A DNA stretch of 15,981 bases. It comes from Candidatus Zixiibacteriota bacterium. Its GTDB lineage: Bacteria; Zixibacteria; MSB-5A5; CAIYYT01. Of this stretch, positions 607 to 13,745 are shown piece after piece (the stretch's first letter is position 1; each line of letters starts with the position of its first letter). Both the position numbers and the translations under genes were made by a program. The notes beneath the pieces are model-generated. The model was given only the letters and a program-made list of their open reading frames with translations. It was not told the DNA's origin and searched no databases. Where the stretch lies: the NCBI GenBank assembly GCA_040235515.1, contig JBECKX010000067.1, positions 1 to 15,981 of the forward strand, given 5' to 3'.

Positions 607-2763
607 TTACTTGTCAAGTACCATCAGCACGAATGCATACTCGAAGGCCAGCATCCGGTAACCTTGATAGCGCCCCGAAGGCCCCTGGTGCCCTGAACCC
701 ATATCGGTCTTCAGCAGCAACAGGTTTCTATCAGTCTTGGTCGCACGCAGTTTGGCGGTTAACTTCGCCGGTTCCCAATATGGCACCCGCGGATCATTCA
801 GACCGGCTGTCACCAGCAGGTTGGTGTAATCTGTGGCCCTGATATTCTCATACGGTGCATACGACTTGATATAGTCGTAATACTCCCGCGTCCCACCCGG
901 ATTACCCCACTCATCATATTCAGGTACCGTCAACGGAATCGTCGGATCAAGCATCGTATTCAGGACGTCCACGAACGGGACATCAAGAATCATCCCCTTG
1001 AACAGCGTCGGACGCAGGTTCATGACCGCACCCATCAACAATCCACCGGCGCTGCCACCCGATGCGAACATCTTGTTCTTGTCGCAGTAGCCGTCCGCTG
1101 CCAATTTTTCCGCGCAGGCTACGAAATCGGTGAATGAATTCTTCTTATGCAGCAGCTTGCCATCCTCATACCACTTGCGTCCCTTGATCCCGCCACCTCG
1201 CACATGCGCCAGCGCGAAGACGAAACCGCGATCGAGCAACGAGATGCGATTAGTGGAGAAGTAGGGATCGTACGAAATCCCATAAGCGCCATATCCATAC
1301 AGATAGAGCGGGTTGGTGCCATCCTTGTGGAACTTGTCCTTTCGGTAAACCAGCGAAATCGGCACCTGCTCCCCGTCCGGCGCGGTCGCGTAAATTCGCT
1401 CAGTCTCATAGTAGCGCTTGTCGAAGCCTCCACCCACTTCATATTGCTTCATCAGCGTACGCATCCAGTTTTCCATGTCGTAGTCGTATACCGACTTCGG
1501 CGTCACCATCGATTCGTAAACGAATCGCAGCAAGTTCGTGCGATATTCCGGGTTGTCGCCGATCTCGACGGAGTAGGCGTCTTCTGGCATGTCAATCGAA
1601 TACTCCGCACCATTGATATCATCCAGCACCACCAGCTTCCGCAACGCATCCTCTCGCTGTACGATCACCAGGAAATGCTCAAAGGGAACGACGCTCTCCA
1701 GAGTCACGTCGTCTCGCTCCGGAATCATTGCTTTCCAGTTCTCAGGCCCCGGTGCACTCACCGGAGCTGCCATCAGCTTGAAATTGACAGCATCCTCGTT
1801 GGTCAAAAACAGGAACTGATCACCGCGATTGTACACGTAATACTCGATTCCCTTGGTGCGCGGCTTGATGAGCTTGAATTCTCCGGTAGGTTTGTCAGCC
1901 GGCAGGTAACGCCACTCACTGGTAGAATAGTTGCCGAGCTGGATCATCACAAACCGCTCACTCCGGGTCTTCGATAGCGAGAGGAAGAAACCGTCATCCT
2001 TCTCCTCGTACACAAGTTTGTCCTGCGCCGGATCGCTTCCCAGCGTGTGTCGCATCACTTCGTATGGGAGTTCGAGAATCGAATCGAGCACGGTGTAGAA
2101 CAACGTCTTGTTATCCGCCGCCCAAACGACTTCGCTCCCGATGTTCTGCAGCGTGTCGGCCAGGTAAGCCCCCGTTTCGAGGTCCTTCACGTAAAGCGTG
2201 TAGTTCTCCGCCCCGGTAGTATCGGTAGCGTACGCCAGCAAGCGATGGTCGGGGCTCACCTCGTAGGCCCCCAACGCCATAAACTCCTTACCCTCGGCGA
2301 GCTGGTTGAGGTCAATCAAGACCTGCTCCTCATTGTCGAGGCTCTCATGCTTGCGGCAATAGATCTTATACTCTTTGCCTTCCTCTTCGCGGGTGTAGTA
2401 GTAGTAATCATCTATCCTGACCGGTACCGAGAGGTCGTTCTCCTGAATCCTTCCGACCAGCTCCTGGTAAAGCGTCTCCTGCAGCGCCTCGGTCGGCTTC
2501 ATTATCGCTTCGGTGTAGTCGTTCTCCGCATAGAGATAGTCGATCACATCCGGGTCTTCCTTGTCACGCAACCAGTAGTAGTTATCAACCCGAATATCCC
2601 CGAACACCGTATCCGCGTGCGGTATCGGCGTGGCCATTGGAGGCGCAGGCGGCACAATTACAGCTGCGGTCGCCTGATCCTCTACCTGTGCCGTCGTAAA
2701 TGATGTGAGTGAGCCAAGCAGCAGCGCCAGTACCAGCGCACTAACAATCAAAACCCTTGTCAT
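607..2763 (-). CDS. ptrB: S9 family serine peptidase, oligopeptidase B (protease II)-like, with N-terminal signal peptide
   Basis: 718 aa. Shows DNYYWLRD and EN.YT at the N-terminus, a beta-propeller region, PLYLYGYGAYG, HVRGGG, nucleophile GGSAGG, VPFVDVLNTMLD..IPLT..EYDEWGNP, NDPRV (Asp) and GSGH (His). The N-terminus is a hydrophobic signal peptide. RBS-like GGAAAGG lies upstream. Confidence 0.92.
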   Translation of the reverse strand: MTRVLIVSALVLALLLGSLTSFTTAQVEDQATAAVIVPPAPPMATPIPHADTVFGDIRVDNYYWLRDKEDPDVIDYLYAENDYTEAIMKPTEALQETLYQELVGRIQENDLSVPVRIDDYYYYTREEEGKEYKIYCRKHESLDNEEQVLIDLNQLAEGKEFMALGAYEVSPDHRLLAYATDTTGAENYTLYVKDLETGAYLADTLQNIGSEVVWAADNKTLFYTVLDSILELPYEVMRHTLGSDPAQDKLVYEEKDDGFFLSLSKTRSERFVMIQLGNYSTSEWRYLPADKPTGEFKLIKPRTKGIEYYVYNRGDQFLFLTNEDAVNFKLMAAPVSAPGPENWKAMIPERDDVTLESVVPFEHFLVIVQREDALRKLVVLDDINGAEYSIDMPEDAYSVEIGDNPEYRTNLLRFVYESMVTPKSVYDYDMENWMRTLMKQYEVGGGFDKRYYETERIYATAPDGEQVPISLVYRKDKFHKDGTNPLYLYGYGAYGISYDPYFSTNRISLLDRGFVFALAHVRGGGIKGRKWYEDGKLLHKKNSFTDFVACAEKLAADGYCDKNKMFASGGSAGGLLMGAVMNLRPTLFKGMILDVPFVDVLNTMLDPTIPLTVPEYDEWGNPGGTREYYDYIKSYAPYENIRATDYTNLLVTAGLNDPRVPYWEPAKLTAKLRATKTDRNLLLLKTDMGSGHQGPSGRYQGYRMLAFEYAFVLMVLDK

Positions 2764-2975
2764 CAGTTTCCTTTCCCTGGACTCAGGACCCGGCCCTGTG
2801 GCGTCGCCCGAGCTCTTCGATGTAGAAAGCCAGAATGTTCAGACTCTAAGTTGGGGAATATAATGAAAAGTGGCTGCCTCACCGGCAATGATTTATTGCC
2901 GATCTCTGGCAGCCACGAATTATCTCTTCACCGATTGCCGGGAGCCGCTTTGCTCCCGTAATCAACCGCCGTGTC

Positions 2976-3824
2976 TCAGTAGGCCATCATCGTTTCCAGC
3001 CTGCGAATCCGCTCCTCCATCGGAGGATGTGTGCTGAACAGGCTCGACAGCCCGCGGCGTCCGAAGAACGGGTTCACGATAAACATATGCGCCGTCGCGG
3101 TATTGGCCCGCATCGGAATAGCCTGAACGCCCTTGTGCAACTTCCGCAAAGCGTTGGCCAGATCGCGCGGGTTGCCATGGAGCTTCGCCCCGGCTTCATC
3201 CGCCAGGTATTCACGTGACCTCGAAATCGCCATCTGAATCATCATCGCCGCCAGCGGTGCCACGATCACAGTAATCAACAGTCCGAGTATCCCTCCGTTG
3301 CCACGTTCGTCGGAGCGGCCCCCGGCGAACATCGCCGTCCACTGCGCCATGTACGCCAGCATCGAAATCGCTCCCGCGAATACCGCTGCGATCGTTCCGA
3401 TCAGAATATCTCTATGCTTCACGTGTGCCAGTTCATGCCCCAGCACACCCCGCAGTTCGTTTTCATCCAGGATTCGCAGTATCCCCTGAGTAACCGCCAC
3501 GGCAGCATGCTCCGGGTTTCTACCCGTCGCAAAGGCGTTCGGCGTTTCCGACGGAATCACGTACACCTTCGGCATCGGCAAACCGGCACGCTGTGCCAGC
3601 TCGCGTACCGTATTGAACAGCCGCGGCTGGTCCGTCTCGGTCACCTGCTTGGCGCGATACATCTTCAGGACGATCTTGTCCGAGTACCAGTAGGAGATAA
3701 CATTACCGCCCAGGGCAAAGAGAAATGCTATCATCATTCCACCTCGGCCCCCAACCAGGAATCCTATCCCGACCGCCAGCGCCATCAGTAGCGCCATCAA
3801 AAATGTAGTTTTCAGCGTGTTCAC
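2976..3824 (-). CDS. htpX: Zinc metalloprotease HtpX (M48 family)
   Basis: 282 aa, GTG start with GGAGG upstream. Motifs [19 protein letters not shown] (HExxH), [10 protein letters not shown] and LFSTHPP, plus transmembrane segments. Confidence 0.96.
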
Positions 3825-4311: not shown

Positions 4312-4444
4312 AATTTTCTCCTCCGATTCAAATCCAGTTTCTCTTAGAACTACGCAGCAGGGCGGCAATCCATGGTTGCTAAAAGTCACTCCTTTGGCTA
4401 TTTTCAACGTGTACCACAGAGTCCCCAATCGAAAGGAGCTTTCA

Positions 4445-5458
4445 ATGCGACTCTCCACAACTCAGAGAGTCTCAATCTTCGCTCTGGTTTCCTTCCTGCT
4501 TTTGCTCTTCACCCCATCTGCATTCGCGCAATGCGGAGATTTTGACAACAGCGGCACCAATACGATCACAGACATCGTTGACCTGAACGCCTACCTCTTC
4601 GTCGGCGGGGCGGCCCCGCAGGACTACGATTATGCAGACTTCGATCTGCACCAGAAACTGACTTTCAACGATCTGGCCCATCTCTATGCCTGTGCCTTCA
4701 TCTGCGATTTCTATGATGTTCAATGCCCGCCGACCGAGGCCGCGATTGATCCGGAAGTCGACCCGGCCTTTGTCATCAAGTATCCTGAAGCTGTGCCGAT
4801 TGGGCACACCAGCTATGCCATTACGCTTGAGGCCGACGCGCCTTTCAAATCTCAGGCTATCTGCCTCCCGCTGCGACTCAGGATCGACGGAGCGGTTCCC
4901 CAAATCGACTCGATCGTCACTCCCTCCAGCTCGAGCTACTCTGACGCCAGTGGCAGCGTACCCCTGCGTTACAATGCTCTGATTCATCCCGACTCAGGAA
5001 TCGTCATCGTCAGCGGCACCAAGGGCAACAGCATTCCCTCGTTCCTGCTCTACGACCAGATCGCAACAATCTTTGTGACTGTCCCGATTCGCCCATATAA
5101 ACAGCAGATTGATCTGCAGTTTGTCGAACTGACCCCCGAAGAGGCTGCGCCGGGTCAGGAAAACTCGATCTTCGCCATGTATCTCGGTCCCGGGTTTCTG
5201 AACACGGGAGAACTCCCCAAAGAACCGGTGCTGGAGAGCGACTGTTGTATCCTCCCCGGTGATGTCAATGGCGACGGTCATACCACCATCACCGACGCAG
5301 TGACCATCATCTGCTTCATCTTTGGTGGTTGCTCGACAGCGGGAGTTTGTCCCCAGACGGTCGACATCGATGGCAGCGGCAGTATCAATATTGCCGATGC
5401 AGTCGCCTTGATTAACTACATCTTCGCCGGCGGACCGCCACCGGTCTGCGGACCATAG
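4445..5458 (+). CDS. Secreted protein with N- and C-terminal dockerin type I-like (EF-hand pair) domains
   Basis: ATG at 4445 follows AAAGGAG. Signal peptide ends AFA|Q. N-terminal CGDFDNSGTNTITDIV...ADFDLHQKLTFNDL and C-terminal PGDVNGDGHTTITDAV...VDIDGSGSINIADAVALINYIFAGGPPP are duplicated Ca-binding dockerin motifs. Confidence 0.82.
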   Translation: MRLSTTQRVSIFALVSFLLLLFTPSAFAQCGDFDNSGTNTITDIVDLNAYLFVGGAAPQDYDYADFDLHQKLTFNDLAHLYACAFICDFYDVQCPPTEAAIDPEVDPAFVIKYPEAVPIGHTSYAITLEADAPFKSQAICLPLRLRIDGAVPQIDSIVTPSSSSYSDASGSVPLRYNALIHPDSGIVIVSGTKGNSIPSFLLYDQIATIFVTVPIRPYKQQIDLQFVELTPEEAAPGQENSIFAMYLGPGFLNTGELPKEPVLESDCCILPGDVNGDGHTTITDAVTIICFIFGGCSTAGVCPQTVDIDGSGSINIADAVALINYIFAGGPPPVCGP

Positions 5459-5583: not shown

Positions 5584-5697
5584 ATCCCCCTCCGAACCGG
5601 AGCCCCTTACTACCGCGGCCCAATACAAACTTTCATGCCTAACCACTTGCGTACGAACAGAAACAGGGAAAATCGTCTCCTTATTCCAAAATTCTGC

Positions 5698-5725
5698 TTG
5701 ACAATCGCAACGAATATAGTATAAA
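5698..5725 (+). promoter_or_regulatory. Putative sigma70-type promoter of the RiPP operon
   Basis: TTGACA (5698-5703), 16 nt, then TATAAA (5720-5725), in an AT-rich intergenic stretch and pointing toward the precursor genes. Confidence 0.65.
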
Positions 5726-6036
5726 TTGTCGCAATTGCAGGCCCCACAGCCATTCAAGGCAGAAACAACTCTTAAAATCAGGCTTTAATAAGCCACTCTG
5801 AAAATGCGCCTTTCACAGATGCAAGCTAGTAGTACATCTGCTGTCAGAGGGGGACGCAGCCAATCACCGATGAACCGGAGCGATGCCCGAATCGTCGCGA
5901 TCCGGAAGACTCTGCCGCTTAACTCCGACTCAGATACACATACTCATTATAGACTCGAAAAGCTTACGGTTGAACTGTGGGATGAGCGCTCTGCTTATCT
6001 CGACTGTCATTTCAACTCATATCGGGAGGGAGTCAG

Positions 6037-6159
6037 ATGATTTACTTGATCGACCCTCAGGATGCCGCCATCGAAAAATGCCCGGCCAAGTGCTTCCTTA
6101 AGTGCAGTGGCGTCTGTGGCATTAAGCCGTTGTACGGTGTTCCAATTGATTTCGAATAG
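6037..6159 (+). CDS. RiPP precursor peptide 1, 40 aa: MIYLIDPQDAAIEKCPAKCFLKCSGVCGIKPLYGVPIDFE
   Basis: Translated by hand. RBS GGGAGGGAG, ATG 6037, TAG 6157-6159. Has a CxxxCxxxCxxxC core and an LYG motif, a paralog 284 nt downstream, and lies directly upstream of the radical SAM genes. Confidence 0.9.
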   Translation: MIYLIDPQDAAIEKCPAKCFLKCSGVCGIKPLYGVPIDFE

Positions 6160-6179
6160 GCCCGTTTGAGGCCTGGTGT

Positions 6180-6211
6180 CGCCGGTGAGTGCTGGTAAGC
6201 TCTCATCGGCG
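6180..6211 (+). other. Stem-loop after precursor gene 1
   Basis: CGCCGGTGAGTGCT-GGTA-AGCTCTCATCGGCG forms a long stem with one mismatch and one G-T pair. Smaller hairpins follow at 6217-6241 and about 6267-6285. Confidence 0.5.
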
Positions 6212-6320
6212 TCAAAACCGCCCGAGCCCGATCCGGGTGGTCGCGACTGAGATGTTTGGATGTGGAGGCAAGCATCCCGCTTGTCTGCACTGTTACTTAA
6301 ACACTTCGGGAGGGAGTTAA

Positions 6321-6443
6321 ATGATCTACTTGATCGACCCTCAGGATGCTGGGATCGAGAAATGCCCGACCCTCTGCTTCTTGAAATGCAGTGGCGTCTG
6401 CGGTATTAAACCGCTCTATGGCGTCCCGACAGAAACCGAATAG
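6321..6443 (+). CDS. RiPP precursor peptide 2, 40 aa: MIYLIDPQDAGIEKCPTLCFLKCSGVCGIKPLYGVPTETE
   Basis: Translated by hand. Same RBS GGGAGGGAG, ATG 6321, TAG 6441-6443. 34/40 residues are identical to precursor 1, with 13 synonymous codon differences. Confidence 0.9.
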   Translation: MIYLIDPQDAGIEKCPTLCFLKCSGVCGIKPLYGVPTETE

Positions 6444-6465
6444 ACCTACCTGAAAGGTCTGCAAG

Positions 6466-6496
6466 CGCAGGGGGAGCAAACAATGCTCCCTCTGCG
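6466..6496 (+). other. Stem-loop between the precursor genes and the maturase genes (mRNA stabiliser or leaky terminator)
   Basis: CGCAGGGGGAGCA-AACAA-TGCTCCCTCTGCG forms a 13-bp stem with one G-T pair and has no U-tract. Confidence 0.55.
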
Positions 6497-6545
6497 TAAG
6501 TCGGCAATCGTCGCTGTCGATCGATCGCGAAGGTCAGGAGGACTT

Positions 6546-7967
6546 ATGACGGACTTCAATGCGAACCATAACGCGAACCATAACGCGAACAGCAACCCGA
6601 ACAATGTCGCGAACCTCAAAGCGAAAAAACTATCGCGCTACAATCACTTCCAACCGTGGCAGGGTGGCTACCACATCGCTTATAACGCACTCTCCGGCGC
6701 GCTGGCGGTGATGACCGAAGAAAACTACCGGGCCTACAATCAAATCGCCGACAAAATCAATTCGACTAACGGACACTCTACTTTTGACGAGGGGGAGCAG
6801 GAACTCCTGAAGCAGCTTGAGTTTGGTCGTTTCGCCTATTCCGCCGAGAATGACGAACTCGACAGCATCAAGTTCACCAACAATCTCCACCGCTATGATC
6901 AAACCAGTCTCGGTCTGACCATCGCACCAACAATGGCCTGTAACATGGCCTGTCACTATTGTTACGAGAACAATACCACTCGCAAAATGTCGCCGGAGGT
7001 GATCGAGGCGCTCCTCGACTTCATCGACAGGCGCGCCGATCAACTCCGCACCGTCGATATCTGCTGGTATGGCGGCGAACCGCTCCTCGCACTCGATATC
7101 ATCGAGGATATCACCGAGAGTCTTATCGAACTGAGTGAAGAGAAGCACTTCGAGTATGTCGCGACGATGATTTCCAACGGTTATCTCCTCACACCCGCAG
7201 TCGTTGATCGGCTTGTTGAACTCAGGGTGAAAATGGTGCAGGTTACGCTCGACGGCCCGGCGGCATCACACAATGCCAAACGCCCGCTCAAAAACGGCAA
7301 GGAGAGCTTCGCGACGATCATCGAGAACCTCAAGTACGCCTCCACCAAACTTGCAATTGGTGTGCGTGTTAATGTCGATAAGTCATTTTCGCTTGAGATG
7401 ATTCGCCAACTGCTCGGCGACCTGAAAGCCGCTGGTCTCGAACGCCGCATCGGCATCTACTTCGGACAACTCGAACCGGCGACCCAGGCCTGCGGCAACA
7501 TCGCGGATGCCTGCTACGGCAACGCTGATTTTTCCAACATCGAGTCGGAATACTTCGAGCTGTTGTTGAGCGAAGGCTTTCGTATCGAGAAACTCCCGCA
7601 ACCGGTGGGCGTCTTCTGTATGGCGCAACGTATCAACGCCTTCGTCATTGACCCGGAGGGCTTTCTCTACCGTTGCTACAACTACGTTGGGGATCAAAGT
7701 CACGCCGCCGGCAACATCAAGGATGGCGTGGTAGACTACCAGAACAAGAATTTCAAAAAGCTGTTTCAGTTCAACGCGCTCGAGTCACAGCGCTGCTTGA
7801 ACTGTGATATTCTCCCGATCTGCCTCGGAGGCTGTCCGGCGCAAAGGGCTGATCGGGCTCAAACCGAAGATGATGTTTGTTTGAGCTGGAAGCACAATCT
7901 TGGCCCCATGCTCAACATAATTGCCGCTTCGCGTCAGCAGAAGTTGCAGGCGGCGAGTAAGGAGTAG
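6546..7967 (+). CDS. Radical SAM/SPASM peptide maturase with N-terminal RRE-like extension (putative thioether-forming)
   Basis: ATG 6546 follows AGGAGG. Contains CNMACHYC (CxxxCxxC), WYGGEPLL, SNG and QVTLDG. SPASM cysteines are CMA...LYRC...CLNCDILPICLGGCP...C. The ~100-aa N-terminal region KLSRYNHF...YNALSGAL resembles the RRE domains of peptide-modifying rSAMs. Confidence 0.88.
   Translation: MTDFNANHNANHNANSNPNNVANLKAKKLSRYNHFQPWQGGYHIAYNALSGALAVMTEENYRAYNQIADKINSTNGHSTFDEGEQELLKQLEFGRFAYSAENDELDSIKFTNNLHRYDQTSLGLTIAPTMACNMACHYCYENNTTRKMSPEVIEALLDFIDRRADQLRTVDICWYGGEPLLALDIIEDITESLIELSEEKHFEYVATMISNGYLLTPAVVDRLVELRVKMVQVTLDGPAASHNAKRPLKNGKESFATIIENLKYASTKLAIGVRVNVDKSFSLEMIRQLLGDLKAAGLERRIGIYFGQLEPATQACGNIADACYGNADFSNIESEYFELLLSEGFRIEKLPQPVGVFCMAQRINAFVIDPEGFLYRCYNYVGDQSHAAGNIKDGVVDYQNKNFKKLFQFNALESQRCLNCDILPICLGGCPAQRADRAQTEDDVCLSWKHNLGPMLNIIAASRQQKLQAASKE
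6558..6605 (+). repeat. 12-nt in-frame tandem repeat encoding NANH-NANH-NANS-NPNN
   Basis: Four degenerate copies, AATGCGAACCAT AACGCGAACCAT AACGCGAACAGC AACCCGAACAAT, at the 5' end of the first rSAM gene. Confidence 0.8.
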
Positions 7968-7972
7968 GGAAC

Positions 7973-9094
7973 ATGAAGAAAGAAACCAACCAATTCAGGT
8001 TCTTCCCACAATCAGTGGTCTGGGAGATCACCTTCGCCTGTAACATGCGTTGCATCCATTGCGGAACCGCTGCGGGCAAGAAACGCCCCGACGAACTCAC
8101 GACCATCGAAGCGCTCAATCTCGTCGACGAACTCGCCGACCTCGGCTGTGAAGTCGTCGCCATCTCGGGCGGCGAGCCGCTCATGCGCAGCGACTGGCAC
8201 CAAATCGCCAAACGCTTCGTCGATCGTGGCGTCAAAACCTGCTTGATCACCAATGGTCTCGCTGTCACCGAGGAGATCGTCGATCAGTTCATCCAGCTGG
8301 GGCTGACCCGCATCGGCGTCAGTTTCGATGGCACGAAGAATACTCATAACTACATCCGCCAGCGTGATGACAGCTACGACCAGGTTATCAACGCGATGAA
8401 ACTGATGGCCGCCAAAGGCATGCCCTTTGCCGCCGAGAGCCAGATTTCAAACATCAACGTCTACGAACTCGATCAGATGCGCGAGATCCTGATCGAAGCC
8501 GGCTGCCCTCTCTGGCGTATCCAGATGACCACCAGCACCGGCCGCATGGCAGCCAACAAAGAATTGGTGCTCTCGAAGGAAAACTACAATCTGCTCGTCG
8601 ACAAGATGCTGGCATACCAGAAACGCAATCATGAAATCATGATCGATGTCGGCGAAAACATCGGCTTCTACGGCTGCAAGGGTACCGAATTGTGGCAAAA
8701 TACACCCTACTTCGGCTGCTTTGCCGGTACCCGTGTAGCCGGTATCGAATCGAACGGCACCATCAAAGGTTGTCTCTCGATGCCGGAAGATTTCGTGGAG
8801 GGCAACATCCGCGACTCCTCCTTCACCGAGATCTGGAATGACCCGACCAAGTTTGCCTACAACCGCGCCTTCACTCGTGACAGCGCGGAGGGCTTCTGTC
8901 ACGACTGTAAATATCTGCCGCTGTGCCGTGGTGGATGTGCCACCACCTCATACTCAGCGTCTGACTGTCGCGCCAATAACCCCTACTGCACCTATCGCAT
9001 CGAGCAGGAACAGGGAATAGCGGCGCCGGCAGACTCCGAAGTCGTGGCTCAACTGTTGCGGCGTTTCGAGCCGATTGCAACTGTCGAAGTCTAA
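7973..9094 (+). CDS. Radical SAM/SPASM enzyme, splicease (PlpX/PcpX)-like, putative tyramine-excising maturase
   Basis: 373 aa. Motifs VVWEITFACNMRCIHCGTAAG...ELTT.EAL, SGGEPLMRSDW, WRIQMT...G, GENIGFYG, GCFAG...GIESNGTIKGCLSM, GNIRD, GFCHDCKYLPLCRGGC and NNPYC. The rSAM/SPASM call is certain. The splicease subfamily call rests on remembered motif similarity, not on an alignment. Confidence 0.85.
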   Translation: MKKETNQFRFFPQSVVWEITFACNMRCIHCGTAAGKKRPDELTTIEALNLVDELADLGCEVVAISGGEPLMRSDWHQIAKRFVDRGVKTCLITNGLAVTEEIVDQFIQLGLTRIGVSFDGTKNTHNYIRQRDDSYDQVINAMKLMAAKGMPFAAESQISNINVYELDQMREILIEAGCPLWRIQMTTSTGRMAANKELVLSKENYNLLVDKMLAYQKRNHEIMIDVGENIGFYGCKGTELWQNTPYFGCFAGTRVAGIESNGTIKGCLSMPEDFVEGNIRDSSFTEIWNDPTKFAYNRAFTRDSAEGFCHDCKYLPLCRGGCATTSYSASDCRANNPYCTYRIEQEQGIAAPADSEVVAQLLRRFEPIATVEV

Positions 9095-9163: not shown

Positions 9164-10600
9164 ATGCCGCAGAACAGCCCGCGTATCCTGATCCTCTATC
9201 CATCCTGTTTCTACTATCCTGCCTGGATGGAACGAGTCGAAGTCAAGACGCCACTGCTGCTCATGGCTTCATACCTGCAGCAATTCTACCCGGTCGAGTA
9301 CGCCGATTTCGAAATCACTATCGGTCGACCCAACACACCGATCCAGATTCGCCGCTTCGAGCGTAAAGTCCGTGAGTTCCTCGCGCAGGCAGATTTTGAT
9401 ATCCTTGCCGTCTCCTGCTGGACCAGCCTCTCTTACAAAGCGACAATCAAGGTGGCTCAAATCTGTCGCGAACTCTGCCCCGACAAGCTGATCGTGGTAG
9501 GGGGGTATCATCCCTCCGCACGGCCTCACGAGTTCCAGTCGGAGGACCAGCTCTTTGACTACATCATCTGTGGCGAGGGCGAACTCGCCCTGCGTGAGTG
9601 TGCCCGACAATTCGTTGCTTCCGGTCGACCCTCCGCCACCACCTTCGTCAACGCGCCGATCCTGCCGCAGGAGGCCTTCGTCCCCCACGATTGGGATCTG
9701 ATCTCCAGCTTCGTGAAACTCAATTTCCCCCAGGGACTCGACAACGTCTACCTCTTCCTCTCGCGTGGCTGTCCGTTCGACTGCGCCTTCTGCATGGAAC
9801 CGTTGAAGGAGCGAAAGTGGCGCGCCTACTCCCCGGAACTGGCGGTGCAGGAAATCGACTCCGCGGCGGGCCGGTTTCAACCGCATTCGATCTCGCTCTG
9901 CGATGCCTGCTTCGGCATGCGCCCCGCCTGGCGTAAAGACTTCCTCAAGCGGCTGGTCGATCTGAGTCCCCCGTACTGGGTCACTCTCGAAACCCGGCCG
10001 GAATATCTTGACGAGGAGGATGTCAAGTTGCTTTCCCGGTTGAAAGTTGAGATCCAGCTTGGAATCGAAAGCTGCTCACCCGATATGCTGCGGATCATGC
10101 GCAAGAGCAAACAGCCGGAGCACTTCCTGCGCGAGTTCAAACGAGCCAGCGAACTGATGTCGGACCATGGCGTACTTCATCGCGCCAATCTGATCTTCAA
10201 CCATCCCGGCGAAACCCGTAAAACCCTCAACGAGACTTTCCAGTTCATCGATGAAATGACCGCCCGCAGCGATTCTGCCCTGATGTGGGCCGCTCACGGC
10301 TTCATGCATTTTCCCGGTTGCGATTGCGACCGCAATCATGCACACTATGAGAGCAGCTTTGGCGCCCACCAGCCCTGTGGCGATTGGTGGCACGAGGAGC
10401 GCGATCAGTATGAAAACAGCCTGCGCACGGTTCCCTCGTCTGAGTTGGCCGGAGACGGGATCGAACTTTGGCGCACGCTGCTGCGCGAGCGCGACGACTC
10501 CATGAAGCACTCCCTCTCCGACAAAGCTGTGAAGTTTGCGTCGGCGAAATATTTTCCGCACTGGAAAGATAATGAACCCACCCACTCCATCGGTCGGTAA
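9164..10600 (+). CDS. Cobalamin (B12)-binding radical SAM protein, putative class B methyltransferase
   Basis: 478 aa, GGAGG upstream. N-terminal B12-binding Rossmann motifs PLLLMASYL, DILAVSCWT, IVVGGYHPS and DYIICGEGE, followed by SRGCPFDCAFC, LGIESCS..ML..MRK and IFNHPGET. Confidence 0.9.
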   Translation: MPQNSPRILILYPSCFYYPAWMERVEVKTPLLLMASYLQQFYPVEYADFEITIGRPNTPIQIRRFERKVREFLAQADFDILAVSCWTSLSYKATIKVAQICRELCPDKLIVVGGYHPSARPHEFQSEDQLFDYIICGEGELALRECARQFVASGRPSATTFVNAPILPQEAFVPHDWDLISSFVKLNFPQGLDNVYLFLSRGCPFDCAFCMEPLKERKWRAYSPELAVQEIDSAAGRFQPHSISLCDACFGMRPAWRKDFLKRLVDLSPPYWVTLETRPEYLDEEDVKLLSRLKVEIQLGIESCSPDMLRIMRKSKQPEHFLREFKRASELMSDHGVLHRANLIFNHPGETRKTLNETFQFIDEMTARSDSALMWAAHGFMHFPGCDCDRNHAHYESSFGAHQPCGDWWHEERDQYENSLRTVPSSELAGDGIELWRTLLRERDDSMKHSLSDKAVKFASAKYFPHWKDNEPTHSIGR

Positions 10601-12344
10601 CTGGCCCAAGTATCAGCGACTCTGGCGGTACCTGCGCCCATTCTGGAAACTCGAACTCCTCTCCTTCCTGATCCTCGCAGTCCTGGCTCTGCTGCAACTG
10701 GCGCTTCCCGTCGCCCTGCGCTATATGGTCGATGACCTGATTCCCGGGCTCGATCTCTCCGGTGACCTCTGGCTCTACCTCACACCGATCCTCTTCTTCG
10801 GCGGGGTCCTGGTTGGCGCATATATCCTGCACCTGGCACTCGCAGTCGCGCGCGACTACCTCGCGGCCTACATCGGCGGAGGCATCATCGTCGACATCCG
10901 CGCACAACTCTTCGATCATCTTCAGAAACTGTCCCTGAGATTCCATCAGCAAAAGCAGGTGGGGGAGATCATGTCGCGCATGATGTCAGATGTGTCGCGG
11001 CTTCAGGAACTGCTCACCTCGGTCCTGCTCTCTTTCCTGACTAATTGCTTCTTCCTCCTGGCGATCCTGGTCTACCTCCTGATCACCAACTGGTATCTGA
11101 CTCTGATTACTCTCGCGCTCGTGCCGGTCACTATCTGGCTGACCTATATCTATGGCAAGAAGATGAATGTCGTTGCCGAAGCGCTGCAGCGAACAATCGC
11201 GCGCCTCTCCGCCAAGCTGCAGGAGACGCTCGTGGGGCTGAAAGTCATCAAATCGTTCGGGCAGGAGCGCAATGAGTTGCAGAAAACCCATAGCGTCCTC
11301 AGCTCACTCTGGCGCACATATATCAATTACTCAGTGACGTCATCACTCTCCGGCAACCTCGTTTACGTCGTCAGCATGGTCGGACCCATCACGGTACTCT
11401 GCATCGGTATCTATCTCGTCGCCAGCGGCTCGATGACCCTCGGTGCCCTGATTGCCTTCTTCTGGCTGGCCTTCTATCTGTTCATGCCGATCCAGGCCCT
11501 CTCAAAAGCCCGCGTGCAGATTCAGGCCTCCATGGCTTCCGTGGACCGCGTGTTCGAATACCTCGACGAACCGGTCGCCGTCTCCGAACCAGAGCATCCA
11601 GTGACGCCGGCGACGATCGCAGGCTCCCTACAGTTTAACGCGGTCTCCTTCGCCTACGAATCTCAGATTCCGGCTGTCCGTGAGATCAACATTACTATCA
11701 ACGCCGGCGAAAAGGTCGCCATTGTGGGGCACTCCGGTAGCGGCAAGAGTACGATCATCAACTTAATCCTCCGCCTCTATGACCCCGATCAGGGCGAGGT
11801 CACCCTCGATGGCGTTGACCTCCGCAAGCTCTCGATCGCGACGCTGCGTGACAACATCTCCGTAGTCGACCAGGACCCGCTGCTGTTTCATGCTTCGGTT
11901 GGCGAGAATATCGCCTATGGAAAACCGGATGCATTGCGTGACGAGATCGAAGCCGCTGCGCGTGTCGCCAACATCCACGACTTTATCGCTGCACTGCCGA
12001 ACGGCTACGACACGATCGTTGGCGAACGTGGTGTGACGCTCTCCGGTGGGGAGAAACAGCGGATCTGTCTGGCGCGGGCCGTGATCAAAGACCCGCGTGT
12101 GCTGCTGCTCGATGAGGCCACCTCCGCGCTCGACACCATCTCCGAGCGGCTGATCCAGCAGTCACTCGATAAAATCCTGCAGGGCAAGACCGCAGTAATC
12201 GTGGCGCACCGACTCTCAACCGTCAAAAAAGCTGACCGCATCATCACAATGGAGCGGGGTCGCATTATCGATCAGGGGAGTCACACCGACTTGCTCGCCC
12301 GCTCACAACTCTACCGCGACCTGGCAGAACACCAGTTGGCCTGA
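10572..12344 (+). CDS. ABC exporter, fused permease/ATPase (MsbA/ABCB-like), no C39 peptidase domain
   Basis: Probable ATG at 10572 overlaps the upstream gene end by 29 nt. Six-TM domain, Walker A GHSGSGKS, signature LSGGEKQR, Walker B LLLDEATSALD and H-loop AHRLST. Confidence 0.93.
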   Translation: MNPPTPSVGNWPKYQRLWRYLRPFWKLELLSFLILAVLALLQLALPVALRYMVDDLIPGLDLSGDLWLYLTPILFFGGVLVGAYILHLALAVARDYLAAYIGGGIIVDIRAQLFDHLQKLSLRFHQQKQVGEIMSRMMSDVSRLQELLTSVLLSFLTNCFFLLAILVYLLITNWYLTLITLALVPVTIWLTYIYGKKMNVVAEALQRTIARLSAKLQETLVGLKVIKSFGQERNELQKTHSVLSSLWRTYINYSVTSSLSGNLVYVVSMVGPITVLCIGIYLVASGSMTLGALIAFFWLAFYLFMPIQALSKARVQIQASMASVDRVFEYLDEPVAVSEPEHPVTPATIAGSLQFNAVSFAYESQIPAVREINITINAGEKVAIVGHSGSGKSTIINLILRLYDPDQGEVTLDGVDLRKLSIATLRDNISVVDQDPLLFHASVGENIAYGKPDALRDEIEAAARVANIHDFIAALPNGYDTIVGERGVTLSGGEKQRICLARAVIKDPRVLLLDEATSALDTISERLIQQSLDKILQGKTAVIVAHRLSTVKKADRIITMERGRIIDQGSHTDLLARSQLYRDLAEHQLA

Positions 12345-12764: not shown

Positions 12765-13745
12765 ATGAAAATTCTTATAATCGGCGGAACACAGTTTGTC
12801 GGACGGCACCTCGTTGATGAGCTCCTCAAAGACAAACATGAAATCACCCTCTTCCACCGCGGAGAGACAAACAAGAACCTATTCCCACAGGTCGAAGAGA
12901 TCCTTGGTGATCGCGATGGCAACATCGACAAGCTCGCGGGCCGAACCTGGGATTGGTGCATCGATACCTGCGGCTATCACCCGCGCGTGGTCAGGCAATC
13001 AACTCAGCTTCTTCGGAACCAGGTAGCCAACTACCTCTTCATCTCAACCTGCTCGGCCTACTCTTACGACAATGAGGGGCCGGTGACTGAGGATGGTCTC
13101 CTCCACACGCCCATCGACGAATCGATAGAGCAGGTAGATCGCCACACTTACGGTCCCCTCAAGGTGATGTGTGAGGATGTTGTCGCTGAGGATTTCCCCG
13201 ATAATCACCTGATCATCAGACCCGGCATCATCATCGGCCCGCACGATCCTACTGATCGCCTCGTCTATTGGTTGCGACGCTTCTCGCGGGCGGACAAAGT
13301 TCTTTGTCCCGACACGAAGGATCAACCGGTGCAGTTAATCGATATGCGTGATATGGCCGTTTGGATTGCCTCACTTGTGAGCAGGGGAACGACAGGCATC
13401 TTCAACGCCGCCGGACCGGAAACTCCGGTTCCCTTCGGTGACCTGATTACGAGGTTGAGAGCAATTTTCGACAGCATGGCCGAACCGGTCTGGGCTGATC
13501 TCGAGTTCCTTAAGAACGCTGATCTCCCACCCGGCTCATTACCGTTCTGGCTCGCCGGCGCAAAGGAGAAGTACAGCCTGTTCCAAGCTGACTGTGCAAA
13601 GGCTCGCTCAACCGGCCTCAGATATCGCCCTCTGGAGGAATCGTTTAAGGACACCTACGAATGGGATAAGGGTAGGGTGGGTGTTGATCTTGTGTCAGGA
13701 CTCAGCCTGCAACGCGAACAGGAGCTGCTCGCACAGCTCCCGTAG
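12765..13745 (+). CDS. NAD-dependent epimerase/dehydratase family (atypical/extended SDR) oxidoreductase
   Basis: 326 aa. MKILIIGGTQFVG Rossmann motif, GDR, YLFIST..AY, YGPLK (YxxxK), IIRPG.I.GP.D and QLID.RD. Confidence 0.9.
   Translation: MKILIIGGTQFVGRHLVDELLKDKHEITLFHRGETNKNLFPQVEEILGDRDGNIDKLAGRTWDWCIDTCGYHPRVVRQSTQLLRNQVANYLFISTCSAYSYDNEGPVTEDGLLHTPIDESIEQVDRHTYGPLKVMCEDVVAEDFPDNHLIIRPGIIIGPHDPTDRLVYWLRRFSRADKVLCPDTKDQPVQLIDMRDMAVWIASLVSRGTTGIFNAAGPETPVPFGDLITRLRAIFDSMAEPVWADLEFLKNADLPPGSLPFWLAGAKEKYSLFQADCAKARSTGLRYRPLEESFKDTYEWDKGRVGVDLVSGLSLQREQELLAQLP

Follow-up and report, generated by a model that had tools for sequence, protein, structure and literature searches.

Two paralogous 40-aa ORFs in the window (the whole 15,981-base contig that was analysed, part of a 3.6-Mb genome) are real, conserved genes under purifying selection. 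They open a cassette of radical SAM and ABC exporter genes (Table 1), and on sequence grounds the system is most aptly regarded as combining two known kinds of radical SAM peptide tailoring, that of the spliceotides and that of the thioether peptides. By analogy with related systems, the Cys ladder of the precursors would probably be thioether-linked by the CteB/Clo7bot-like enzyme 1, and their invariant Pro-Leu-Tyr-Gly would lose tyramine through the splicease-like enzyme 2.

Table 1. Features of the window, in order of position.
Feature	Position	Strand	Remarks
RBS of precursor 1	6022..6033	+	12-mer TCGGGAGGGAGT; ATG 3 nt downstream
Precursor gene 1	6037..6159	+	40 aa; ATG 6037, TAG 6157-6159; 5-residue tail
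Hairpin, inter-precursor spacer	6177..6214	+	Strongest of three predicted in the folding of 6157-6300
RBS of precursor 2	6306..6317	+	Identical 12-mer TCGGGAGGGAGT
Precursor gene 2	6321..6443	+	40 aa; ATG 6321, TAG 6441-6443
Hairpin, precursor 2 / enzyme 1 gap	6465..6497	+	Perfect, 14 bp, GC-rich; z -5.4
Enzyme 1, rSAM/SPASM	6546..7967	+	RRE-like N-terminal domain, radical SAM core, full SPASM
Enzyme 2, rSAM/SPASM	7973..9094	+	Without RRE; candidate tyramine splicease
B12-binding radical SAM enzyme	9164..10600	+	Accessory; likely C-methyltransferase
ABC exporter	10536..12344	+	Contains transmembrane and ATPase domains but no peptidase domain; start position uncertain
SDR-type gene	12765..13745	+	Common only to the same-genus relative; outside the conserved cassette

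Precursor genes

Re-reading of both frames gave 40 aa each, and a codon-by-codon recount returned the figures of the preliminary description: 13 synonymous and six amino-acid changes, the latter confined to positions 11, 17, 18, 37, 38 and 39 (34/40 residues identical), with residues 19-36 identical despite 10 synonymous changes and every codon of L32-Y-G-V-P36 different. The 26 base differences were distributed 5/4/17 over codon positions 1/2/3, and the Nei-Gojobori comparison gave a pS of 0.62 and a pN of 0.11 (dN/dS 0.09; Fisher p = 1.8e-6). As had been described, the two genes shared their RBS while the flanks agreed little (14/40 bases at -60 to -21 and 17/60 downstream), so that the flanks beyond the 12-mer are unrelated. 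A GGAGG-type site preceded the start in all family members listed from the fetched loci. The layout of precursor 1 was an N-terminal MIYLIDP tag, Cys at positions 15, 19, 23 and 27, and P31-L-Y-G-V35; P31-L-Y-G34 was found in both window peptides.

The genes had been considered unannotated and below the ORF cutoff, which held for the cutoff and for names, both exact peptide sequences being found in a public protein collection without a name; public gene callers had, however, called both.

The reading of both ORFs as open by chance, or as a non-coding but conserved element (for example an RNA), was given next to no probability. The ORFs are short, and the sequence runs listed for 5600-8000 of the window were three of DNA, all from a single sediment study, and none of RNA, which is not evidence either way. 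The codon comparison, with its codon-periodic substitutions, contradicted this reading, as did the frame, open in the sense direction only in 15/15 four-Cys homologues examined, and the codon variety at invariant residues: all four Pro, both Tyr and all four Gly codons were used at these sites in 50 distinct gene sequences, which indicates that the constraint acts on amino acids. A search of Rfam matched no family within the window.

An ORF at 5804-6040 that overlaps the start of precursor 1 was rejected as a gene, the same-genus locus having no homologue of it. In that same-genus relative (L051, G001:C23, positions 8536-8922) the two paralogues, one PAKC-type and one TTLC-type, occurred in reversed order relative to enzyme 1, which suggests that the copies were rearranged or underwent gene conversion once the duplication had occurred.

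Distribution and signature of the peptide family

A word-indexed search returned nine peptides of 37-40 aa (identity 65-78%), and an exhaustive phmmer search returned 20 matches, comprising 18 peptides of the same design (35-45 residues) and two spurious repeat proteins. The homologue and profile search proposed as a check in the preliminary description recovered the peptide family in 86/285 phylum genomes (68/198 of those of good quality; 40/130 genera; 1-9 copies per genome), the phylum set being the records labelled Zixibacteria; some MAG records carry the label Ignavibacteria. Among 61 related genomes, the peptide was present in 23, and the same 23 held an enzyme 1 of 52-78% identity; a 24th held a 36% enzyme 1 paralogue only and no peptide. 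Together with the dN/dS ratio and the single open frame, this strict pairing with the enzyme bore out the earlier claim that the two ORFs look translated, are under purifying selection and are of precursor type. The peptide was present in 13/13 genomes of one genus and in 17/20 of the family, and tandem precursor arrays reached about seven per locus, with variable middles.

The family signature was M-I-Y-L-I-D-P, followed by 2-5 Cys mostly in CxxxC spacing and by P-[L/M/C]-Y-G-[V/I]. It was derived from 70 distinct peptides, obtained by pooling 57 matches to the N-terminal pattern alone within the loci with database peptides chosen by overall similarity. P-X-Y-G was present in 69/70, the sole exception being a frameshifted copy. 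In these 69 peptides X was Leu (53), Met (9) or Cys (7), and the residue after Gly was V (47), I (17), T (3), P (1) or L (1). The Tyr was internal, 3-10 residues following the Gly. The number of Cys before P-X-Y-G was four in 36 peptides, three in 17, two in 14 and five in two, the first Cys was at position 15 in 51/69, and the spacing was i to i+4 in 143/164 intervals. These counts supported the constraint proposed for the YG motif and for the Cys ladder. The leader had also been called unusually short and devoid of a double-glycine site; about 14 residues did precede the first Cys and GG was absent, but the shortness is not unique, the N-terminus of Clo7bot being alike.

The peptides matched no precursor family of Pfam or NCBIfam at threshold, and the Clo7bot peptide family gave no NCBIfam match at E up to 1 (22 peptides). 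The best curated peptide models were HuaA (E = 0.059; 13.4 bits vs. a cut-off of 35) and AC3_0185 (E = 0.11; 12.5 bits vs. 35), each with one peptide only. Comparison with Cys-rich precursor HMMs, the second check that had been proposed, thus gave no Clo7bot-type or CXXX-repeat membership, all best scores being below the cut-offs. Assignment to huazacin and to CXXX-repeat/AC3_0185 peptides was rejected on these scores and on that of the CXXX-repeat maturase model TIGR04115 (76 vs. 350 bits).

Two loci departed from the common pattern. In locus L064 (G019:C14), the precursor at 1810-1930 had two single-base deletions and enzyme 1 at 2012-3349 had a frameshifted stretch with three stops, while enzyme 2 and the ABC gene looked intact. 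The assembly consists of 20 contigs, so sequencing indels are as likely as decay, and the joint damage to peptide and enzyme 1 may reflect long-read indel error or early decay. At 4348-4470 of locus L072 (G009:C2), an orphan precursor (40 aa, four Cys, PMYG) was found on another contig, about 4 kb to each side of it being free of cassette genes.

Cassette organization and hairpins

The 23 stretches fetched from relatives comprised 21 informative cassettes, one cassette cut by a contig end and one orphan precursor. The order precursor(s), enzyme 1, enzyme 2, optional B12 enzyme, ABC exporter was kept in 21/21 complete loci, the peptide gene lay directly 5' of enzyme 1 and on the same strand in the fetched cassettes, and the genes flanking the cassette differed from locus to locus.

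The region 6157-6300 folded at -66.5 kcal/mol (z -4.4), and 0/200 shuffles were as stable. The hairpin at 6465-6497 is likely an attenuator or an mRNA-stabilising element. Hairpins (z ≤ -2.5, 100 shuffles) were predicted after 19/33 precursor genes in relatives, with differing sequences. A promoter scan returned one sigma-70-like site (5698-5727), no more than in shuffles.

Near the window cassette, protease-related genes encoded an S9 prolyl-oligopeptidase/oligopeptidase-B-like protein (607-2763, minus strand), HtpX (2976-3824, minus strand) and a dockerin protein (4376-5458, plus strand). Other loci carried a papain-like protease with a dockerin domain, a serpin and a subtilase (L050:351-2456, L050:11696-12715 and L047:490-2457). 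A link between such neighbours and a protease-inhibiting product is only a thought, none of them being conserved across loci. No leader protease gene was encoded in the cassette and no conserved one was found in its flanks, the S9 peptidase being common only to the same-genus relative.

Enzyme 1

The best NCBIfam matches of enzyme 1 were the Clo7bot maturase TIGR04334 (320 bits; cut-off 600) and TIGR04463 (293 bits), then CefB, the geopeptide maturase, PapB and the SCIFF maturase (98 bits vs. 425), and the protein was below the cut-off for all of its best models. The nearest annotated genes were CtpM and a TIGR04463 member (34% identity each). Among solved structures, CteB (5wgg/5why) ranked first with the enzyme 1 profile (E = 1e-26, from CteB residue 17) and with Foldseek of the enzyme 1 model (E = 9e-19; 454-468 aligned columns, among them those of the peptide-binding N-terminal domain). 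The AlphaFold model (pLDDT 78) placed a strand-rich domain, a beta-sheet followed by helices, at residues 27-117, and enzyme 1 carried the only RRE-like domain of the cassette. In a 23-sequence alignment the rSAM cysteines (C132, C136 and C139) were kept as CxxxCxxC, and nine further Cys were invariant in the C-terminal (SPASM) region; with the full rSAM motif and these nine Cys, enzyme 1 looks active. The gene arrangement of sacti- and ranthipeptides, an RRE-rSAM-SPASM enzyme beside a precursor with 2-5 Cys, was present. By analogy with these relatives, enzyme 1 would recognise the MIYLIDP tag and form thioethers at the Cys residues.

Another possibility, considered rather improbable, is that the Cys are not thioether donors and form disulfides or bind metal, enzyme 1 acting otherwise or presenting the peptide to enzyme 2 as a substitute for the Y protein. 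It would be consistent with the simple disulfide between two Cys described for spliced Rheinheimera cores (PMC11626197), with the PqqD-like partner that type I spliceases are described to require (PMC11414181) and with the confinement of the RRE-like domain to enzyme 1. The chemistry of Clo7bot/CtpM and TIGR04463, the nearest enzyme 1 relatives, was likewise not found in the literature searched. The intact appearance of the SPASM clusters, with which the full rSAM motif and the nine invariant Cys are consistent, argues against it, as does the activity of the characterised relatives CteB, PapB and the SCIFF maturase, all of them makers of Cys thioethers. The conserved i to i+4 spacing at a Cys number varying from two to five also fits repeated local rings better than a fixed metal site. 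Thioether formation by enzyme 1 was the preferred prediction.

At 6546-6630 of the window, enzyme 1 has an extra N-terminal low-complexity stretch of Asn/Ala/His repeats that arises from a short DNA repeat; its orthologues are without this stretch and start about 25 residues later.

Enzyme 2

TIGR03913 and TIGR04103 were the two best families in 21/21 enzyme 2 orthologues (E 1e-73 to 1e-76) and exceeded every other family by about 50 bits or more in each. The scores of enzyme 2 itself were 249 bits with TIGR03913 (cut-off 592) and, second-best, 245 with TIGR04103 (cut-off 725), by which it is a relative of these families and not a member. In the control genomes scanned for TIGR04103 and TIGR03913, nothing scored above the cut-off. 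An ESM Atlas search with enzyme 2 returned only generic rSAM/SPASM clusters, mostly from Myxococcota.

The nearest annotated plasmid genes were GDL-motif maturases (37-39% identity), and small proteins adjoining GDL-type enzymes contained xYG or xYA close to the N-terminus. Enzyme 2 was also 35% identical (E = 2e-71) to a Nostoc "nif11-class peptide radical SAM maturase 3", annotated as TIGR04103. The Nostoc gene was flanked by a Nif11 precursor with the core ...GGRGSIALYGLPPELF (ending ...ALYGLPPELF) and by a 72-aa ORF, an arrangement that is the published type I spliceotide layout. The window site ...PLYGVPPE... resembles the ...ALYGLPPE... beside this annotated TIGR04103 gene. On an Agathobacter rectalis plasmid (L079, about 2400-3500), an unannotated 35-codon ORF ending ...PVMYGTGVRM was located just 5' of a radical SAM gene whose product shares 37% identity with enzyme 2; its Tyr-Gly pair is possibly due to chance, given the total ORF length.

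TIGR04103 presumably corresponds to IPR026482, the PlpX family. PlpX is assigned to IPR026482 in one source (PMC11002830). Spliceases are described as rSAM/SPASM enzymes that excise tyramine at XYG, with MYG and LYG as native splice sites; according to the same sources, a Y protein is missing from most systems, and from hundreds of pathways, outside cyanobacteria (PMC11414181, PMC10533398, PMC9811515, PMC10849128). The ketoamide remaining after splicing is reported to inhibit serine and cysteine proteases (PMC11414181, PMC11626197, PMC9811515, PMC10533398, PMC10849128, PMC11002830), and a Rheinheimera LYG core with two Cys is reported to be spliced and to inhibit proteases (PMC11626197). By analogy, P-[L/M/C]-Y-G is predicted to be the splice site for enzyme 2, a reading that goes beyond the preliminary description.

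A different Tyr chemistry of enzyme 2 on genuine precursors, such as a C-C or C-O cross-link, a Tyr-Gly-Val/Ile cyclophane or an MftC/PqqE-type reaction, with no excision of tyramine, was judged unlikely. Enzyme 2 is under every curated family cut-off, also matched the MftC model (153 bits vs. 265) and had PqqE among its matched solved structures; the neighbours of its TIGR03913-type relatives had xYA besides xYG, and the beta-branched residue (V, I or T) after Gly in 67/69 peptides would fit an enzyme that abstracts hydrogen from a tertiary carbon. The consistent lead of TIGR03913 and TIGR04103 over other families and the LYG precursor beside the annotated TIGR04103 member stand against this chemistry, and the cyclophane-forming YhhB, GrrM and AmcB were absent among the enzyme 2 matches listed. 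The Tyr of the MftC substrate is C-terminal, unlike that of the present peptides, and assignment to mycofactocin was rejected on the MftC score and on the internal Tyr, with no terminal Gly-Val-Tyr. Tyramine excision by enzyme 2 remained the preferred prediction.

B12 enzyme and exporter

The B12 enzyme matched models of the B12-rSAM methyltransferase type weakly. It was located between enzyme 2 and the ABC gene in 10/21 informative cassettes and was absent in 11/21, and inspection by eye across the fetched loci revealed no peptide residue that co-varied with its presence. On a Methylomagnum plasmid (L081, 870-6383), a 680-residue "Cys-every-fifth" protein with C-terminal Cys five apart had a TIGR04463 maturase and a B12-type RiPP methyltransferase as neighbours, the same pairing as that of enzyme 1 and the B12 enzyme.

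The exporter was MsbA-like, with no C39 peptidase domain. An intracellular cofactor-like product, in the manner of PQQ or mycofactocin, instead of an exported inhibitor or signal was held to be very improbable. The wide and mostly vertical inheritance, as in the genus and family fully or largely occupied by the peptide, and the high conservation of both peptide ends recall cofactor precursors. The ABC exporter is, however, fixed in the cassette, the precursors form tandem arrays with variable middles, redox enzymes are not linked and the flanking genes are unconserved; an exported product was therefore favoured.

Proposed pathway

The MIYLIDP tag would dock on the RRE-like domain of enzyme 1, which, like sacti- and ranthipeptide synthases, would connect the cysteines of the CxxxC ladder with carbons close by. 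Enzyme 2 is predicted to excise tyramine at X-Tyr-Gly and to leave an alpha-ketoamide, the B12 enzyme, if present, would add a methyl group, and the ABC pump would export the product. In predicted complexes of published spliceases, XYG is located next to the SAM pocket. The hairpin after each precursor gene might keep precursor mRNA above enzyme mRNA. Against this mechanism speaks the shortness of the leader: some 14 residues precede the first Cys, whereas published binary spliceases are described as being activated by a helical leader (PMC11414181).

Comparison with known systems

The cassette resembles the spliceotide systems (PlpX/PlpY/PlpA and PcpXYA of Pleurocapsa; RhaX/RasX/RcsX of Rheinheimera), as these are described (PMC11414181, PMC11626197, PMC10533398), in that an rSAM/SPASM gene adjoins small X-Tyr-Gly precursors, X is Leu or Met as in native sites, Cys occur in the core and, as in the binary Rheinheimera systems, a Y protein is absent from the cassette. 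The present system differs from the spliceotides in several respects. Enzyme 2 shares just 35-39% identity with its annotated relatives and scores under the family cut-offs; the precursors measure 31-45 aa and begin with some 14 leader residues that are not of Nif11, NHLP or helical type; a thioether-type SPASM enzyme is a fixed partner, often with a B12-rSAM enzyme as well; and the lineage is Zixibacteria. The type I spliceotides in particular differ by their PqqD-like Y protein and their Nif11 or NHLP leader, neither of which was found in this cassette.

The Clo7bot/CtpM system (TIGR04334) shares with the present one the tandem small precursors, a conserved N-terminus of about 14 residues from Met1 with Pro at 7, a first Cys at 15-16 followed by a CxxxC ladder, and an RRE-rSAM-SPASM maturase (34% identity) with an ABC transporter downstream; the TIGR04463/Cys-every-fifth locus also has a B12-type methyltransferase. 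Clo7bot loci differ in having neither a second SPASM enzyme nor a conserved P-x-Y-G tail, the maturase score is 320 vs. 600 bits, and hhalign against eight Clo7bot-locus peptides gave a probability of 31%, with the Cys ladder only aligned. CteB/thermocellin and SCIFF-type ranthi- and sactipeptide systems are alike in their Cys-rich substrates and in CteB, the best solved relative over the full length of enzyme 1, and unlike in the low identity (about 19%), the SCIFF maturase score given above and the precursor layout.

A literature search found nothing on RiPPs or radical SAM enzymes or on ranthipeptides in Zixibacteria, and TIGR04103 and TIGR03913 were also without match in it. No description of this system was found in the literature searched, outside which the primary splicease papers (Morinaka 2018; Scott 2022) fall. 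It may, as a tentative proposal of somewhat less than even probability, constitute an uncatalogued RiPP class in which thioether-forming and tyramine-splicing rSAM enzymes act on one and the same 31-45-residue precursor, with optional B12 methylation; the product would be a stapled protease inhibitor that carries an alpha-ketoamide and is exported by Zixibacteria as a lineage-wide trait.

Implications

If the predicted chemistry is true, two radical SAM peptide modifications that are known separately, stapling through Cys thioethers and splicing of the backbone to a ketoamide, would be combined on one very small genetic template. The product would offer a compact and rigid scaffold for protease inhibition, encoded by a gene and naturally variable in its middle, with 2-5 Cys and many different sequences. 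The short splice tag would be of interest since spliceases are under development as protein-engineering tools. For the organisms themselves, it would mean that members of an uncultured sediment phylum widely export such a product (86/285 genomes searched), and would point to a role in coping with extracellular proteases or neighbouring organisms.
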